From Rotaria socialis (lineage: Eukaryota), in contig CAJNYT010000219.1 of NCBI GenBank assembly GCA_905331485.1, forward strand, positions 1-49,272: a stretch of 49,272 bases of DNA, in the 5' to 3' direction. Below, one piece after another: positions 4,280 to 18,720 of the stretch; the first letter of the stretch is position 1; every line of letters starts with the position of its first letter. The notes beneath the pieces are model-generated. The model had not been told where the DNA came from, ran no database searches, and saw nothing but the letters and a program-made list of their open reading frames with translations. A program made the position numbers and the translations under genes.

Positions 4280-5362
4280 TCAAATTGATCTATCTATTAC
4301 TTGGTTGTTTCTTGGGCCTGTACCTATCAGCACCACAGGAATGCCTGTTTCACGTTCCATCATTTCTATATACTGCTTGGATTTTTCTGAAAGCTGATCA
4401 TATTGTGTGATACCAGCATCATCATAGTTGATATACTGTATGAAGTTAACTGCCAATTTGTTAACACCTGTCAGTTTCACTGCACGTTTGATACGATTCA
4501 CATCAATTTCAAATACCCGTCGTAATTTCTTAGTAACAGTTGTTAATTCTTTCGAAGAAAATGTCCCAATAGGGGCACCTGCTCGTTGTTCTACTTCTTC
4601 CCATGTGATTTCTTTTCCACCATCCCCTGAATATGCTTCACCTCCATCAGATTTAGCCATGTCATTAGAAATACGAATTGGATATGTACGAATGACACCA
4701 TAGATATCTCGAATATGTTTCGGAGGAATACCGTTATCTGAAAGTCCTTGCATTGGTGAACATTCTCTGCTGGTACAATGTGGATATTGAAAACCATGAT
4801 TAATACCTAATTCAAAACCTTGTGCTATTTCTAAAATACCTGTTTTTCCTTGTTCCAAATCATCGCAAGCCATTTCAGCTGTGTCTGCCAAAAAATTCGA
4901 CCACTCTCGAATGTCATGCATTAATTTATGATCTGGATGCCGCATTACTTTGAATGCACTAGCTGCACCAACACCTTTAAATGTACTTCCAGAGCGTATA
5001 TTCTCCTTTTCCCAATCACGATGTGTTTGTTGGATAACCGATGCTCTTGGATGAATAAAAAGACGGCCTTTTGCTTTTTCTTTGCCGCCAAGATACTGAT
5101 CAACTTCATTTTCAAGCTGTACCAAATCGATAACAGCGCCAGCACCTATATATAATTTCGTACTATCATTAATTAACGCTTGTGGCAACTGTTGGAAAAC
5201 ATATTTGGTGCCATCTTGTTTTATTACCGTATGACCTGCTTGTACACCATAGCTTTCAATAGCAAAATCATATTTGTGCTTTGTAGCTAAATATCCACCA
5301 ATAAGTCCTTTCCCGCACGATCCAAAGCAGAGATCAAGAATAATATCCAACGATCGTTCCAT
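4280..5362 (-). CDS. Adenylosuccinate synthetase family protein, short form (360 aa), PurA/PurZ-like, intronless
   Basis: Uninterrupted ATG..TGA ORF. By-eye alignment to E. coli PurA (query / PurA):
- LDLCFGSCGKG / LGTQWGDEGKGK (P-loop)
- QAGHT / NAGHT
- GSTFKGVG / GTTGRGIG
- EIAQGFELGINHGFQYPHCTS / [21 protein letters not shown]
- TTVTKKLRR / ATTGRRRR
- IGTGPR / ISTGPD
The P-loop Asp is replaced (GSCGKG). The TKLD guanine-specificity motif aligns to NFIQ. Confidence 0.85.
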   Translation of the reverse strand: MERSLDIILDLCFGSCGKGLIGGYLATKHKYDFAIESYGVQAGHTVIKQDGTKYVFQQLPQALINDSTKLYIGAGAVIDLVQLENEVDQYLGGKEKAKGRLFIHPRASVIQQTHRDWEKENIRSGSTFKGVGAASAFKVMRHPDHKLMHDIREWSNFLADTAEMACDDLEQGKTGILEIAQGFELGINHGFQYPHCTSRECSPMQGLSDNGIPPKHIRDIYGVIRTYPIRISNDMAKSDGGEAYSGDGGKEITWEEVEQRAGAPIGTFSSKELTTVTKKLRRVFEIDVNRIKRAVKLTGVNKLAVNFIQYINYDDAGITQYDQLSEKSKQYIEMMERETGIPVVLIGTGPRNNQVIDRSI

Positions 5363-7575: not shown

Positions 7576-9954
7576 TTAGACTTCTTTAAATAATATTCCG
7601 TAGGGTCGAACATTCTGTGAATTGTTACACGTCCATATATCTCGATTGTGCTTTGCGATCGAACTATTATTAATTCTCACTTGAAACATAACTTGCAATT
7701 GTCGGCCATTGTATGGTGTTGGCCTAGAGTAGTGTCTACTCCCGGAATATGATGGATTAGGCGATAAATATATGCCTCGACCATGAGCAGAACCATTAAC
7801 AATAGGTATCCCATTACTACCTCCAGCAATTAAACCATTACGTAGTATAGCTAAAGCATTGGCAGTTGCAGTACCATGATAAGCTACAGGCCATGCATCT
7901 TTGCCCTCCGCTAGCCATTCAGCATTTTCATATTTTCCAAGTACTTTAATAGCCTTTCTATACCATCCGCATGGCCTTGTATAAGGTTCTGGTCCACGTT
8001 GAAAAGTTCGACCGGCATCATTTCTTGTTGTAAAATCGTAGTCGTAAGTGCTATCAAGAAACTCTTCATCTAGCATAACACGATTTACAAAACGATTAGT
8101 CCGAGCAGTAGCACTTGAAAAATGTGGAATATAAGCTGCAATTGAACTCTGATTGTATTGATAAAATCGAACGTTTTGATCATCTTCCCATCGATTTATA
8201 TCATTATCAATATTCCAATAACTTAATCGAATACTTTCAGGACATGTATATTCAGATGGTTCATTTATTATTAATAGTGGACAATGCTCTTTTTTATCAC
8301 TAAATTGAATATGATCAGCTTTGAAATGAATAACTGATATAATTCGATTATAATTTTCTTCTAATGTTCCTTTGTCCGGTACATAATCTTCGTTTTTCCA
8401 TACAGTATTTGGTAAGGATTTACTTACTACGGACTTTGATTCTGATTCTTGTGCTATTTTATATTCCATTATTCGAGAAGAATAATACATAACAGCATTA
8501 CTTTCATACATATCAGCCTTTTCACACTGAGGACACTTTATTTTTACAGTAGAATTAGACTCTTGTTTAATGGTTGATGTTAGTTTATCATTTAATCTTT
8601 TACAGCACTGGTAACAAAATAAAGCTGAACAATTTGGATTAAGACATAATCTATGTTTTTCAGGTATTAAACGACAATATAAACATTCTAAAGCCGAAGT
8701 TCCTTCCATTTCAAATTTATCAATAATTTTTGATTTACGGTATTCTGATAATCGAACTTTCTTGTAACATGTTGGACAATGATGTTCATGATTTGTATTA
8801 TCACAACTGGATTCAATACAAATGCGACAAAATACTTGTGTACAATATGGGCATTCTAAATTATCATCATTAAGTTGTGATAAACAATTTAGACATTCAG
8901 GTTTATCTATGAAAATTAATGAAGATGTTGACGGTTTATTAATTAAAGTAGCTGAATTAAAATCCGTTTCAACTGCTTGTGCTAAATTAGTTTCATTGGA
9001 TGGCGTTTCTTTTTTTGAGGATATAATTGGATTTGACTGAGTAGGATTTATTTTCTTAATGTTAACTTTATCAATCTGATTATTCAATTCATTGATTTTT
9101 GTTGATATCTTCATCCAATTGCATGATGATTTTAAATTATCGATCAAGAAATCGTTGCTCCCAATAGAAATTGTTGTTGATTTTTTATTTCCAATTGTTT
9201 GTTTTGCTTGCTGGGCGGATTTAATCACATTGATGGTCTCAACTGGAAACATTAAAATAATTGTATTATTATCCAATCGAGCTTCACATTCATAATTTAT
9301 TATAGCAAATTTATCCTTATTGATGTCTGAAACTTTTTGACAGCGATCACTAGGTTGGACTGCATTAATCTGAGATGACCCTATATCTCCGTCGACGATA
9401 GTATCAGGCTGAATATTAAATTTTAATTGAACAATAGAACCAGGATTAATTCCTAAATCCAACATTGGAATATATGCATTTTTATTTAATGAGTAATATT
9501 TTCCATTAGCCATAATTCCTTGCGCATAGCGACCGTCGCAACATCTTACTTTACAAAATTGAGATAACAATAAACGATCATAGGGTAATGCTATTAATAA
9601 TGGATAATCATATATTTGGACTGATTTGAACATGGCCGTTTTTATTAATTTAATATGTGACACGTCAGCATTAGCTGAAATGAATATTTTTTCTAGTAAT
9701 TCAAAGTAATTTTCTACATTCATTGTAATTTTTTCTGATAAATGATTAGTTTGAATCATTTTACCAATATGTTGACATAATTTATTATATCTGAGTGGAT
9801 GAATTAATTGGGACGAAGGAATAATTCCCATTTTAATTTCAGTTATTGGCCAATATCTGAGATCTTGATCTTTACTAACAGCGCTAATAGGTTTATTATA
9901 ATCAGAATTTTCACTTTCTAATTGATTAGTGTTATCGGCAATTAAATGAAACAT
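7576..9954 (-). CDS. 792-aa protein: two Cys/His zinc-finger modules (RING/IBR-like) plus a C-terminal ADP-ribosyltransferase-fold (H-Y type, PARP/NEURL4-like) domain
   Basis: Single uninterrupted ORF starting at ATG.
- Zinc modules: CLNCLSQLNDDNLECPYCTQVFCRICIESSCDNTNHEHHCPTCYKK and CLYCRLIPEKHRLCLNPNCSALFCYQCCKRL...KCPQCEK.
- C-terminus: RPCGWYRKAIKVLGKYENAEWLAEGKDAWPVAYHGTATANALAILRNGL...AHGRGIYLSPNPSYS...VRPYGILFKEV. This shows the His (xYHGT) and Tyr (GxGIYxS) signatures of the PARP-type ART fold. Confidence 0.65.
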   Translation of the reverse strand: MFHLIADNTNQLESENSDYNKPISAVSKDQDLRYWPITEIKMGIIPSSQLIHPLRYNKLCQHIGKMIQTNHLSEKITMNVENYFELLEKIFISANADVSHIKLIKTAMFKSVQIYDYPLLIALPYDRLLLSQFCKVRCCDGRYAQGIMANGKYYSLNKNAYIPMLDLGINPGSIVQLKFNIQPDTIVDGDIGSSQINAVQPSDRCQKVSDINKDKFAIINYECEARLDNNTIILMFPVETINVIKSAQQAKQTIGNKKSTTISIGSNDFLIDNLKSSCNWMKISTKINELNNQIDKVNIKKINPTQSNPIISSKKETPSNETNLAQAVETDFNSATLINKPSTSSLIFIDKPECLNCLSQLNDDNLECPYCTQVFCRICIESSCDNTNHEHHCPTCYKKVRLSEYRKSKIIDKFEMEGTSALECLYCRLIPEKHRLCLNPNCSALFCYQCCKRLNDKLTSTIKQESNSTVKIKCPQCEKADMYESNAVMYYSSRIMEYKIAQESESKSVVSKSLPNTVWKNEDYVPDKGTLEENYNRIISVIHFKADHIQFSDKKEHCPLLIINEPSEYTCPESIRLSYWNIDNDINRWEDDQNVRFYQYNQSSIAAYIPHFSSATARTNRFVNRVMLDEEFLDSTYDYDFTTRNDAGRTFQRGPEPYTRPCGWYRKAIKVLGKYENAEWLAEGKDAWPVAYHGTATANALAILRNGLIAGGSNGIPIVNGSAHGRGIYLSPNPSYSGSRHYSRPTPYNGRQLQVMFQVRINNSSIAKHNRDIWTCNNSQNVRPYGILFKEV

Positions 9955-10016
9955 AATTAATTGTAAAACTGAAATGGACTCATTTTCTGATAATAGTGTT
10001 TTTGATTCTTTACGTT

Positions 10017-10688
10017 CTAATAATAATAATCGGATTTATGAATAATTAATAATCGAAATGGTGGTAATGCAACACGATTTAATCGAAAAGAAAGTTTTAA
10101 AATTTCTTCGTATAATTCTTTTGCTTCATTTTCTAATGAAATCATTATATTTTCATATACTAATACATAATCAGCAAGATCAACAGGTATTGTGTCAATG
10201 TTATCACTATATAGTATAGTGGATAATATCAGATGAGCTGCACCAATAGTCATAGATTTCGGCAACCAAATCGATTTTAATTGACTATTTTTTGTTGTAG
10301 AAGATAATGAATTTAATGATTTAACTGAATAAATTTCATATTTAACCATACCAGCATCAGTGGTCTGATTTATATTATTAACAGTAATAAAATTACTAAA
10401 AGTTGTATAGAGATCATTGACAAATTCGTGTAAGATTGGATTGCCTTTTAAGTCTAAGACTTTTGTTTGTGCTTGTTGTTGAGATTTCTCAATTGTTTCT
10501 TTAACTATTTTACCGTGATCTTTTGATGAAAATGAATTAAAACAATACTTTTCACTTTCAAATAATGCTTTTAATATATTGACAGTTGTTGGGGTGTCAT
10601 AGATAATATTACTTATTGTGTTGTTTCGGTTATTCGCATTAAGATCATTAGTATCGCTTTGATTGGGAACAGTGGAGGAATTACCCAT
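10017..10688 (-). CDS. 223-aa protein of unknown function with an N-terminal myristoylation-type motif (MGNSSTV)
   Basis: ATG-initiated ORF on the same strand as the zinc-finger-ART gene, ending 62 nt upstream of it. No domain recognised by eye. Gly2 plus Thr6 fits the MGxxxS/T pattern. Confidence 0.45.
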   Translation of the reverse strand: MGNSSTVPNQSDTNDLNANNRNNTISNIIYDTPTTVNILKALFESEKYCFNSFSSKDHGKIVKETIEKSQQQAQTKVLDLKGNPILHEFVNDLYTTFSNFITVNNINQTTDAGMVKYEIYSVKSLNSLSSTTKNSQLKSIWLPKSMTIGAAHLILSTILYSDNIDTIPVDLADYVLVYENIMISLENEAKELYEEILKLSFRLNRVALPPFRLLIIHKSDYYY

Positions 10689-11449
10689 TTTTTATTCGTT
10701 CGTAGGCAGAAAATCTGAAATTGTAGTCAAACTATAAAAGTAATACTAACATCGGATTAACTATAAAAATTTTGTGCTAATGATTCGAACAGAAACTCTT
10801 CTAATCGTCGTCCTTCTTCTATCTTAAGAAATTAAAAGACAAAAAGACCGCTTGATAACAGATAAAGAAGAATATTAAAATAAATAGAAGGATGTTTTCA
10901 TATTATCTAATCATTGCTGCTAGATCCTAATAGATATATTTGGCATTTGAATAGATAATTTTAACTTGTGTTCAATATCATATAACACTGTTGTATGGAA
11001 AAAATTTTTATTGCCAACGAAAAATCGTCAACCCACTTGTTTGAACAAGAATTTAAATATTTCAATTTTTTATTGTAGTGTTTTTTATGGGTCACCCTGT
11101 ATATAAACGAAACGAAAAGAAAAATGTAATATGAATCATTACTAACAACAAGAGACATGAAGAGAAACTCAAGGACACGCATATATAGTGAAATCTATAA
11201 TAAAGAAAGTACCAATAGTCTCCTCTGAACACAGTACAGATCATAACTATCTAATATAGATGAATAAATTATGAATATATCAGTGGCTGGCATGTGTAAG
11301 ATTTGCATAACTTGATGCAACCTAATTCACATATTCTTCAGTTCTATCTGAGTCGATTGAATGTAAAAGCTTTTCAGAATAAAGTAAAAATCATGCCAAC
11401 TTTAAAAAATTATTTCCTATGTAATGTTAACTGGCTGTCTCTTGTTTCA

Positions 11450-11508
11450 GCGGATGTGGATGTGTGTGCGCTATCTTTAACCCAGCCTACGCCCACACCC
11501 ACACACCC
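11450..11508. repeat. Inverted telomeric-repeat junction
   Basis: G-arm gcggatgtggatgtgtgtgcg (11450-11470), spacer, C-arm cgcccacacccacacaccc (11490-11508). Confidence 0.8.
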
Positions 11509-11542
11509 TTATGATACTTGACGTCTCTTATTGATCCTTGTA

Positions 11543-12551
11543 TTAGAGATCTGAGCTACGTAAACTCCAGAGTTTAATTATCCATTTGTTTGCGATTTCA
11601 TCAAAGTGGCACGATGTTACCTTAGCAGGAAAACCATCGAAAATCAAAAGTTCTTGTTCATCCGGATAATTTGAATATGGGGACATATCCAGAGAGCCGG
11701 TATCTTTTTCGAGGTCAATGACAAAAAGAAAGTTGCTGCCAAAGAATTCGGCCACGTTCGGATTAAGAGTAGTTGAGGTAAACGCCGGTAATTGGATTTT
11801 TCTTTCAGAGACAACGCATAGTCGAAATTGTTCAATTTGTTCGTTAGTCATCGTTGCTCCTCGATATACTATCATATTAGTGGGAGTAAAATTCATAGCT
11901 GAATTCAATAGTACAGCAAATGGGCCGTTTGGCCATCCATTCACCTTCTCGTTGCTTCCCCACCTTTTTCGCTTCGATTATAAATCCTTCCGCTGCCTTT
12001 TCTATCCACATCTCAAGTACTGACTGACAAGTGATACCTTTCTCCCAACCAACGCCGTAATGAGAACAAGCTTCTTGAACAAAATCAGGAGTTGTTGGTT
12101 CAATTTGCCAGTTTATGAAACTGTTCGAAGGCAAAACTGAATCTTCCAAGAAACGTTCCGCTCTTACTCGTTTCTCTCGTTCATCCTTGTTACGATCAAC
12201 TATACGTTTCACTGGCCGTTGTTTCTTTTCGTCATTATTAGAGATTTGCATAGAACGTGCAAAAACGATATGATAGTCGTCGAGAAGAGCTTCTGGTAAG
12301 CCTTGTTGGAATGCTTCTTCGATGATTTCAGTTTCTACATCGGTGTATTTTCGCCATTCAGCAGGTTCTGCAAAACAGAAAGGAAGCGCATTAGATTGCC
12401 ACAGCCACTCTATATACTGCTTGGCAATCAATGCAGTAGTAGTCATATACGCAACGACCAAACGGTAGCAGTAAAGATTAGATGTGATAGTAAAAAGAAA
12501 GAAAATGAAAGATATATTTCGTTTCATTATTGACTCTTTTTGTTGTTCCAT
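11543..12551 (-). CDS. WWE domain plus R-S-E (arginine-type) mono-ADP-ribosyltransferase, 2 exons (12551-11945, 11898-11543)
   Basis: - N-terminal part: YIEWLWQSNALPFCFAEPAEWRKYTDVETEIIEEAFQQG...YHIVFARSMQISNNDEKKQRPVKR matches the WWE pattern (W-W...W-x-Y...E-x-A...Q...R-x-V-K-R).
- C-terminal part: VYRG (Arg), FTSTT (STS) and PDEQELL (ExE) ART motifs.
- The two ORFs overlap in different frames. A 46-nt GTGAAT...TTCAG intron (11899-11944) joins them in phase, giving 963 nt = 320 aa. Confidence 0.8.
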
Positions 12552-17900: not shown

Positions 17901-18720
17901 TATTGTGCAGCGGTAGGCTTTTCATTTAAGGAAATGTGCTCCAACCGCATTAGACCATCCATACGTATAGGCTTCTGTTTTTGTTTACTTTCAATACAAA
18001 CGCCATTAGCTACAGTACGAAATAGCTGCGTAATATCTTTATTTGGCTTTGCTATGTGTTTCAATAGATGTTTGGCGAATAATCCATTTCTATCAGTAGT
18101 ATCACCATCAGAGGCAATTTGATTTGGGCTACATGCAAAGACGACGTAGCTGCCATCCGGTACTTCCATTGCATGTAAACTAATACCTTCGAGCTTCGCT
18201 AAAACAACGATACGTGATACATCTTATACGGCACAATTTTGACTAGTTTTTGCTACCAACCGTTTCTTTGCCTTTTGTTTTTTGGATAGTGTACTCGACA
18301 ACAATCTAGTATAAATACCGTCACAAAGGATGGATTTTTTTGTCTTAATTGATGAAGAGTGCGTTCGGCACAAGTACAATAATCCTCAACATCTTCATCA
18401 GATTTAATTAAATCATCATCTACGTGAGCCAAATATGTTCTGCCATTAACGTGATAGCCATGGCCAGAAAAGTAGAACATAACCAAATCGCCGTCAACGA
18501 TTGTCTCAGCAAAAGCGGATATTGTAGAGGCCATTTGTGACTTTGTAAGATCACGTGCCGTTTTTACCTGAAATTTAATATTTCGTAGCACGTTACTAAG
18601 ATCATTAGCATCATTGATACAATGACGAAGTCTATCTTCAGATTGAATATAATTCTGGTTTCCGATAACTAATGCTATTTTACGGCGAGGCCTTGAGGCA
18701 GTAGAATTCAGAGTAGCCAT
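17900..18720 (-). CDS. Caspase-fold (peptidase C14) protease, paracaspase/metacaspase-like, 2 exons (18720-18261, 18198-17900)
   Basis: - KIALVIGNQNY...NDANDLSNVLRNIKFQVKTARDLTKSQM...LVMFYFSGHGY (catalytic His).
- FILDCCR (catalytic Cys).
- Second exon: SYVVFACSPNQIASDG...NGLFAKHLLKHI.
- A 62-nt GTTGGT...TTTTAG intron (18199-18260) joins the ORFs in phase, giving 759 nt = 252 aa.
- The layout resembles the MALT1 paracaspase core (ALLIGNxxY...YYAGHGY...FLLDMCR). Confidence 0.8.

Follow-up and report, generated by a model that had tools for sequence, protein, structure and literature searches.

The window analysed here, a stretch of 49,272 nucleotides covering positions 1 to 49,272 of contig CAJNYT010000219.1 of the bdelloid rotifer Rotaria socialis (assembly GCA_905331485.1), carries on its minus strand a gene for a protein that ends in an ADP-ribosyltransferase (ART) domain. 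In the program-made list of open reading frames (ORFs), we found an ATG-to-stop ORF of 792 amino acids at 7576-9954 (-), whose frame stays open for 27 more codons 5' of its ATG, and a second ORF of 223 amino acids at 10017-10688 (-), which lies directly upstream in a different frame. A database search gave 11 relatives, and except for two shorter fragments these had 863-1033 amino acids; where an organism was named (Rotaria magnacalcarata, Rotaria sp. Silwood1 and Adineta ricciae), it was a bdelloid rotifer, and the remainder were metagenomic. The homologues P0001-P0010 were continuous from the upstream ORF into the 792-aa ORF ('...LLVIHKSRLLLLERKESK...' and '...PPFRLLVIHKSRLLLLERKESK...'). 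The closest relative, P0001, had 95% protein identity and is encoded on a contig of R. magnacalcarata (L001, assembly GCA_905319835.1), which was 97.9% identical at the DNA level to window 8101-11926 in BLASTN, with a single gap in the coding region. BLASTN and the frame translations placed this gap at about 10032 (site 10031-10033, minus strand), where L001 has TCCCGA and the window has TCC-GA, and the stop of the upstream frame at 10017-10019 is produced by the missing C. Because the homologues span both ORFs and L001 has CCC where the window has CC, the window copy is frameshifted, and the 792-aa ORF is a fragment of a longer intronless gene.

When one base was restored, the two ORFs joined into a single open frame of 1037 codons, so the whole gene is a single-exon coding sequence of about 1037 codons at 7576-10688 (-), which the window shows as the 223-aa and 792-aa ORFs; the reported ORF is the downstream 76% of it. 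The genes in L001, L003 and L004 were also called without introns, their length being three times the protein length plus the stop codon. The initial annotation had described one intronless 792-aa ORF, and it was right about the ORF and about the lack of introns, as the uninterrupted genes in L001, L003 and L004 indicate, but the ORF is not the complete gene because the homologues include the upstream ORF. From the N-terminus to the C-terminus, the protein is made up of a low-complexity N-terminus, a predicted ubiquitin-like (Ubl) domain, a helical and beta region, a C4C4 RING, a second zinc module, a helical linker, a conserved domain that we call pre-ART, and the ART domain.

The ART domain is encoded at 7579-8106 (-) (ORF amino acids 617-792) and was detected by Pfam PARP, by the family hidden Markov model (HMM) A5 described below, by hhalign and by Foldseek. 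Its features are YDYDF, RG..Y.RPCGWYR, H693 within AYHGT, Y729 within GRGIYLSP, Q-x-R, D772-I-W774 and R783-x-Y785; upstream of the ART motifs lies RPCGWYRKAIKV...EWLAEGKDAWPVAYHGT, and the context of AYHGT is RPCGWYRKAIKV...WPVAYHGT. The xYHGT and GxGIYxS signatures read by the initial annotation are therefore present as AYHGT and GRGIYLSP. The Pfam PARP model (PF00644) scored 30.1 bits versus a gathering score of 26.7 (E 4e-7), with only model positions 51-120 of 199 aligned, and it was above threshold in 9 of 12 family members; weak Pfam matches to Tpt1/KptA were sub-threshold. The best PDB sequence match of the family profile was PARP10 (23 bits, E 4e-4), no solved structure being on record for any member of the family itself. 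The AlphaFold2 (AF2) model of the last 453 amino acids had a mean confidence (predicted local distance difference test, pLDDT) of 57 overall and 70-85 in the ART core. Foldseek comparison of this model with the PDB gave 106 matches at E<1e-3, the best (E 6e-6) being the ART domains of PARP4/10/16/14, and the 50 listed of these 106 were all PARP catalytic domains (PARP4, 10, 16, 14, 15 and 12), each aligned over about 160 columns. Thus, PF00644, the PDB profile search and Foldseek confirmed that the C-terminal domain has an ART fold, as had been proposed.

H693 and Y729 were invariant among the homologues. For the third catalytic position we take E988 of PARP1 as the reference, and the alignments and the spacing to this residue point to D772, which precedes W774 by two residues, as the candidate. 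Members of the rotifer RING-ART group have D, N, D, N, F, D, P, D and F at this site, with I or V before the Trp, while the members in which the ART domain is fused to ubiquitin (see below) mostly have E, D, N, Q or K there, and NEURL4 has Glu immediately before the Trp. Measured against the H-Y-[E/I/L/Y] triad, H693 and Y729 are invariant, the third position is D/N/F/P, and the part of the domain aligned by hhalign with PARP1/2 amounts to 73 core columns. The mono-ART PARPs, for example PARP10, 14, 15 and 16, which are active without the Glu, likewise combine an invariant H-G...Y with a third residue that varies (Table 1 in PMC7955679).

To place the domain among ARTs, alignments of NEURL4-family ART domains and of PARP1/2-type domains were taken from the supplementary CLANS file of PMC7955679. 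With the family HMM, NEURL4-family domains reached 46.5 bits at best (E 3e-11 at PDB database size), and PARP10 reached 23 bits on the same scale. In hhalign, a profile of 24 ART sequences matched NEURL4 with a probability of 99.4% (E 4e-21) over 125 columns, beginning at the P-x-G-W-x-R strand and ending with the last one; the control comparison with the PARP1/2-type alignment gave 91% (E 1e-6) over 73 core columns, and NEURL4 against PARP1/2 gave 1.7%. The NEURL4 HMM also matched the window protein with 29.5 bits, on a par with Pfam PARP. The initial annotation had linked the arrangement to the NEURL4-type ART clade rather than to classical PARPs, and the two hhalign E values agree with it. 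Judged by these profile comparisons, the ubiquitin-fused ART family to which the domain belongs is the sister of the NEURL4 ART family and is placed between NEURL4 and the PARPs.

The rotifer domain and NEURL4 have in common the P-x-G-W-x-R strand, W...[FY]HGT, x-[FY]-x-SP, the [QE]-x-R strand, a Trp that follows the third catalytic position, and G-[IL]-L as the last strand. Both are also associated with E3 ubiquitin ligases, the partner of NEURL4 being the HECT ligase HERC2. However, NEURL4 has a long insert after HGT and an E-x-E-W motif, neither of which is found in the rotifer domain, and the rotifer domain is above the Pfam PARP threshold whereas NEURL4 is undetected by Pfam. The window protein has R-D-I-W and G-I-Y-L-S-P, versus E-x-E-W and Leu/Phe at the second position in NEURL4. 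We rejected the possibility that the protein is a NEURL4 orthologue because it has no NHR repeats, keeps the Tyr and has neither the long insert nor E-x-E-W; Neuralized/SPRY Pfam models gave no match at E up to 1 in the window protein and the 11 homologues. The paper by de Souza and Aravind from 2012 is said to be the founding one on the NEURL4 ART domain family. Human NEURL4 is listed as H-L-E (PMC7955679), and ART activity has been reported for NEURL4 (Cardamone et al. 2022, PMC8932523).

When 1.84 billion cluster representatives were searched exhaustively with the profile, 1856 of them matched at E<1e-3 and 924 at E<1e-10. The last 170 residues or so matched hundreds of proteins at E 1e-28 to 1e-45, far above any classical PARP, and the N-terminal 600 residues matched almost only fragments of the rotifer family, plus weak secondary matches in distant relatives. 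Pfam ubiquitin was found in 90 of the 130 top relatives, immediately N-terminal to the ART domain. The typical member has about 315 amino acids and consists of a canonical ubiquitin, often ending in LRGG, followed by the ART domain, and further fusion partners are protein kinase, WWE, Hint/intein, PB1 and WW domains. Members were found in fungi (Glomeromycota such as Rhizophagus, Gigaspora, Paraglomus and others, with many paralogues among the matches, and the ascomycetes Xylaria and Cladonia), in animals (bdelloid rotifers, Hydra vulgaris, the crinoid Anneissia and the fish Scortum), in the choanoflagellate Salpingoeca urceolata, in the amoebozoan Clydonella and in the green alga Bryopsis. 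Eighteen residues (F, R-G, Y-x-R-P-x-G, R, V, W, W, Y-H-G, Q-x-R and R-x-Y) were invariant in 24 diverse domains, and the window protein keeps them all. The family HMM made from alignment A5, which is our own definition of the ubiquitin-fused ART family, matched the window translation at E 1.1e-66. These profile matches show that the ART domain belongs to a large pan-eukaryotic family in which it most often stands directly behind ubiquitin, and the presence of members across eukaryotes ruled out an ART family specific to rotifers.

The ubiquitin-ART (Ub-ART) proteins of about 315 amino acids share the ART family with the rotifer protein (35-45% identity, E 1e-57 to 1e-62 to the family profile) together with the 18 invariant residues, but they have canonical ubiquitin directly before the ART domain, they lack the RING, the pre-ART domain and the long N-terminus, and many of them have E or D at the third catalytic position. 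In the window, no Pfam or HMM match to canonical ubiquitin was found anywhere, and the sole ubiquitin-like candidate is a predicted Ubl fold about 650 residues upstream of the ART domain. Examples of Ub-ART proteins come from Rhizophagus, Gigaspora, Rotaria, Adineta, Hydra vulgaris (LOC101237461), Bryopsis and Cladonia, and they are annotated merely as 'ubiquitin-like domain-containing protein'. A literature search found no account of ubiquitin-ART fusions or of rotifer RING-ART proteins, a mention in de Souza and Aravind 2012 or in Aravind's 2015 review being possible, and the family seems to be uncharacterised and unnamed.

Some members of the family had unusual architectures. In P0047 (Clydonella sp., Amoebozoa) and in P0226, a ubiquitin ending in RGG is followed without a gap by a Hint/intein-like autoprocessing domain (Cys at +1) and then by the ART domain; this order suggests that the Hint-bearing members may cleave themselves in a regulated way or carry out a transfer reaction between their ubiquitin and ART parts. 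P0032 of Anneissia japonica (XP_033122888.1) has a kinase-Ubl-ART unit twice within 1426 amino acids and P0030 of Scortum barcoo has several partial ART copies, so the family also occurs in deuterostomes.

Two zinc modules precede the pre-ART and ART domains. Module 1 is encoded at 8767-8895 (-) (ORF amino acids 354-396, full-length 599-641) with the C4C4 spacing C-x2-C-x10-C-x2-C-x4-C-x2-C-x13-C-x2-C, and module 2 at 8524-8685 (-) (ORF amino acids 424-477) with C-x2-C-x6-H-x2-C-x4-C-x4-C-x2-C-x23-C-x2-C. All 16 Cys of both modules were invariant in 12 homologues. At module 1, the family profile matched the TRIM37 RING in the PDB at E 3.6e-4, and also TRIM32, RNF4 and BRCA1, so we accept module 1 as a C4C4 RING-type finger, for which E3 activity is predicted from the sequence. 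Module 2 aligned to the second RING of the fused RNF4 dimer 4ap4 and was modelled by AF2 at pLDDT 84-89, and its 'CLNPNCSALFCYQC' (C-x4-C-x4-C-x2-C) in our view recalls IBR/Rcat motifs. The initial annotation had named two RING/IBR-like zinc modules, which fits module 1 by its invariant Cys and the TRIM37 match, but module 2 matched neither RING nor IBR models in Pfam. Tandem Cys-rich modules are also found in RBR ligases (RING1-IBR-RING2), but the rotifer protein has only two modules, and at the position of the RBR catalytic Cys, two residues before the conserved His of module 2, it has E/K/R/M. With two modules, no RING2 catalytic Cys and no IBR match, the protein is not an RBR E3 ligase.

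The pre-ART domain, encoded at 8092-8421 (-) (ORF amino acids about 512-621), is conserved and beta-rich ('...PLLIINEPxEYxCPES..LSYW...W...F....A.IPHFS'). It has many invariant residues, AF2 gave it five strands at pLDDT 65-86, and it matched no Pfam family. The domain was also found in the non-RING and distant relatives P0019-P0022, P0031, P0033 and P0034. P0031 (791 amino acids, about 20% identical, metagenomic) has the RING, zinc module, pre-ART and ART in the same layout, and P0021 has the zinc module, pre-ART and ART. At the slot equivalent to the RING/zinc region, P0022 has a Ubl (Pfam ubiquitin E 2.4e-5), and P0034 and the likewise metagenomic P0033, which are without zinc modules, have a Ubl-like stretch there that was seen by eye without Pfam support. 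That a Ubl can stand where other members have the RING points, by context, to a function in the ubiquitin system. As to whether the architecture exists outside rotifers, the only named organisms with RING-ART proteins are so far bdelloids, and the metagenomic P0031 matches the layout; the ART family itself is pan-eukaryotic.

The N-terminal region, which the initial annotation had given as 370 amino acids without a motif, has a true length of about 590 amino acids, and a Ubl domain is predicted within it. The AF2 model of P0001 (863 amino acids, 28-sequence alignment, pLDDT 52) had an island at residues 111-220 with pLDDT 65-78, in which the order is strand-strand-helix-strand-strand-helix-strand, and Foldseek gave weak beta-grasp matches. 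This model makes a Ubl domain probable at about residues 112-218 of the full-length protein, encoded at 10035-10355 (-) and including 'LPKSMTIGAAHxILSTIL'. Since hhalign of the N-terminal and pre-ART regions against a ubiquitin alignment gave no signal, the assignment is structural only. The Ubl-encoding stretch lies wholly in the upstream ORF, just before the frameshift, so the frameshift cuts the N-terminus with the Ubl off from the RING and ART domains. The protein starts with MGNSSTV at window 10674-10688 (-), and we take this M-G-x-x-x-[ST] start to fit the consensus for N-myristoylation; Rotaria homologues have similar starts (MGNSFSV, MGNSPSN and MGNILYN), but those of distant homologues differ (MSHS.., MSN.. 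and MSC..).

Taken together, we favour, with a probability of about 60%, that the gene encodes a multidomain protein of about 1037 amino acids found in bdelloids, which carries a one-base deletion here and which would couple a mono-ART to a RING E3. In this mechanism, NAD+ would be bound through the invariant His, Gly and Tyr, and the domain would act as a mono-ADP-ribosyltransferase, since the third catalytic position is D/N/F/P with no conserved Glu. The RING would recruit an E2~ubiquitin conjugate and bring it to the ART domain, so that ubiquitylation and ADP-ribosylation would be coupled on one scaffold, and ADP-ribose could be transferred onto ubiquitin or onto substrates under ubiquitylation, by analogy with DTX3L-PARP9/Deltex. 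Our template here is the ADP-ribosylation of ubiquitin by DTX3L-PARP9/Deltex during E2~ubiquitin turnover. A bolder proposal, that the ART domain is the core of a eukaryote-wide family with ubiquitin as the acceptor and that the bdelloid RING-ART is a single-chain E2~ubiquitin machine, ADP-ribosylating ubiquitin or ubiquitylating ADP-ribose, is speculative and would surprise us if it held in full. The initial annotation had already suggested coupling of ubiquitin-type ligase and ADP-ribosyl-transfer activities in one polypeptide; the link to ubiquitin is supported by context (the 90 of 130 fusions and the RING match), and the activity is a prediction. Overall, its ORF and motifs, ART clade and ubiquitin link stood, and its gene boundaries had to be corrected.

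Coupling of a RING E3 to ADP-ribosylation chemistry is also found in DTX3L-PARP9 and in the Deltex RING-DTC ligases, but there the activities reside in two polypeptides or in a DTC domain, and the rotifer ART comes from another clade. The DTC domain had no Pfam match at E up to 1 in the window protein and the 11 homologues, and as the C-terminus is an ART domain, a Deltex-type RING-DTC ligase was rejected. Links between PARPs and the ubiquitin system have been documented before, including the U-box-macro-PARP of Dictyostelium in Clade 3D (PMC2964712, PMC4245714). In this protein, too, a single polypeptide carries a RING-like domain that binds E2 and a catalytic domain of PARP type, but it has a U-box and not a zinc RING, a macrodomain, and a classical Clade 3 PARP domain. 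Since E3-PARP fusions are known, the principle is not new; the novelty lies in the ART clade and in the architecture.

Several points, on the locus as well as on the protein, weigh against the coupled mono-ART and RING E3 that we favour. The gene copy in the window is frameshifted, its dN/dS relative to the intact copy in L001 is 0.61 (34 non-synonymous and 14 synonymous differences), and the gene next to it is broken too. This upstream neighbour, at window 11546-12446 (-) versus L001:2908-3972, encodes a WWE domain and an R-S-E-type (ARTC/exoenzyme-like) ADP-ribosyltransferase. The WWE-ART in the window lacks 158 nt (L001 3431-3588, amino acids 175-227), among them the region of the 'LYCMGSFLYRKLNETMR' Arg motif. 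GGC microhomology marks the deletion junction, and the gene is frameshifted by this loss into two overlapping ORFs at 11877-12551 and 11543-11944. Such a loss with microhomology is hard to attribute to a sequencing error, so with two adjacent ART genes broken on one haplotype, this haplotype may encode nothing functional. The copy of the RING-ART gene is thus either a recent pseudogene or a homopolymer assembly error. That the locus is a non-functional pseudogene, with a genuine frameshift and no working product from either the 223-aa or the 792-aa ORF, is in our estimate only a little short of even odds: the missing base relative to a 97.9% identical intact copy, the deletion in the WWE-ART neighbour and the dN/dS all fit it, but the loss falls in a homopolymer (CCC), where long-read assemblies typically err, no further stops or indels occur across 3.1 kb, the non-synonymous and synonymous counts are small, and an intact copy exists in L001. 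The WWE-ART itself was rejected as a conserved partner, since tblastn found none in the loci of Adineta ricciae (L003) and Rotaria sp. Silwood1 (L005); in A. ricciae the genes next to the RING-ART gene encode ankyrin repeats, a Tudor-methyltransferase and GTPases.

On the side of the protein, Pfam RING models on module 1 were sub-threshold (E 0.02), and module 2 had no RING or IBR Pfam match at E up to 10, so that its class is not assignable. The Ubl rests on an island of pLDDT 65-78 without sequence support, its placement coming from secondary structure alone, and both AF2 models had low overall confidence (pLDDT 57 and 52). Ubiquitin in the Ub-ART relatives could by analogy be a cleavable expression tag and not necessarily a substrate; ubiquitin serves as such a tag in its fusions to ribosomal proteins. 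The variable third position in the RING-ART subgroup means that some members may be inactive, and the domain could even be a pseudo-ART, catalytically dead like PARP13, PARP9 and TASOR, which binds NAD+, ADP-ribose or ubiquitin while the RING ubiquitylates only. We consider this unlikely: although the subgroup has D/N/F/P at W-2 and I/V at W-1 where the NEURL4 family has E at W-1 and many Ub-ART members have E or D at W-2, no rotifer member has lost the His, Gly or Tyr of the NAD+ pocket or any of the 18 residues that are invariant in the family, and the active mono-ARTs PARP10, 14, 15 and 16 do without the Glu as well (Table 1 in PMC7955679). It is quite improbable that the protein is instead a component of immunity or genetic conflict, with an ART domain that modifies non-self nucleic acid or proteins and not ubiquitin, and with expansions driven by an arms race. 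The very many Glomeromycota and bdelloid paralogues among the matches, the varied fusions (kinase, WWE, Hint/intein, PB1 and WW) and the high dN/dS between copies point that way, and the conserved Arg-rich set (R-G, R-P, R, Q-x-R and R-x-Y) with the weak Tpt1/KptA matches fits a phosphate-rich substrate; however, the Tpt1 matches are sub-threshold, the surroundings of the gene in three loci share no partner genes specific to defence, and a conflict system would be compatible with ubiquitin coupling. An ordinary classical PARP (Clade 3, PARP10/14-like) with an added RING would pass the PF00644 threshold and have PARP10/14/15/16/4 as its best PDB sequence and fold matches, as was seen here, but we hold it to be very improbable, because PF00644 aligned at only positions 51-120 of its 199, NEURL4-family domains outscored PARP10 with the family profile at the same database size (up to 46.5 versus 23 bits), hhalign covered the whole domain for NEURL4 (E 4e-21) and 73 core columns for PARP1/2 (E 1e-6), and the P-x-G-W-x-R N-terminal extension is common to NEURL4 and the ART family and not to PARPs.

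Elsewhere in the window, an ORF at 4280-5362 (-) matched adenylosuccinate synthetase (PF00709, E 8e-42) and an ORF at 18253-18720 (-) matched a caspase domain (PF00656, E 2e-28). These ordinary eukaryotic genes fit a nuclear contig of a bdelloid with a GC content of about 33%.

The crosstalk between ubiquitylation and ADP-ribosylation is an active field, with Deltex, DTX3L-PARP9, RNF146 and the bacterial SidE and CteC as examples. The frameshift limits the value of the copy in the window, and the wider ubiquitin-fused family is the better lead. The locus leads to an ART family of more than 1800 representatives in fungi, animals, choanoflagellates, amoebae and green algae, which by profile comparison is the nearest relative of the poorly understood ART domain of human NEURL4. 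If ubiquitin is indeed modified, the members of about 315 amino acids would be simple natural models for NEURL4-type ART function, and if it is the acceptor, the bdelloid RING-ART proteins would be an endogenous counterpart of DTX3L-PARP9/Deltex from a different ART clade.

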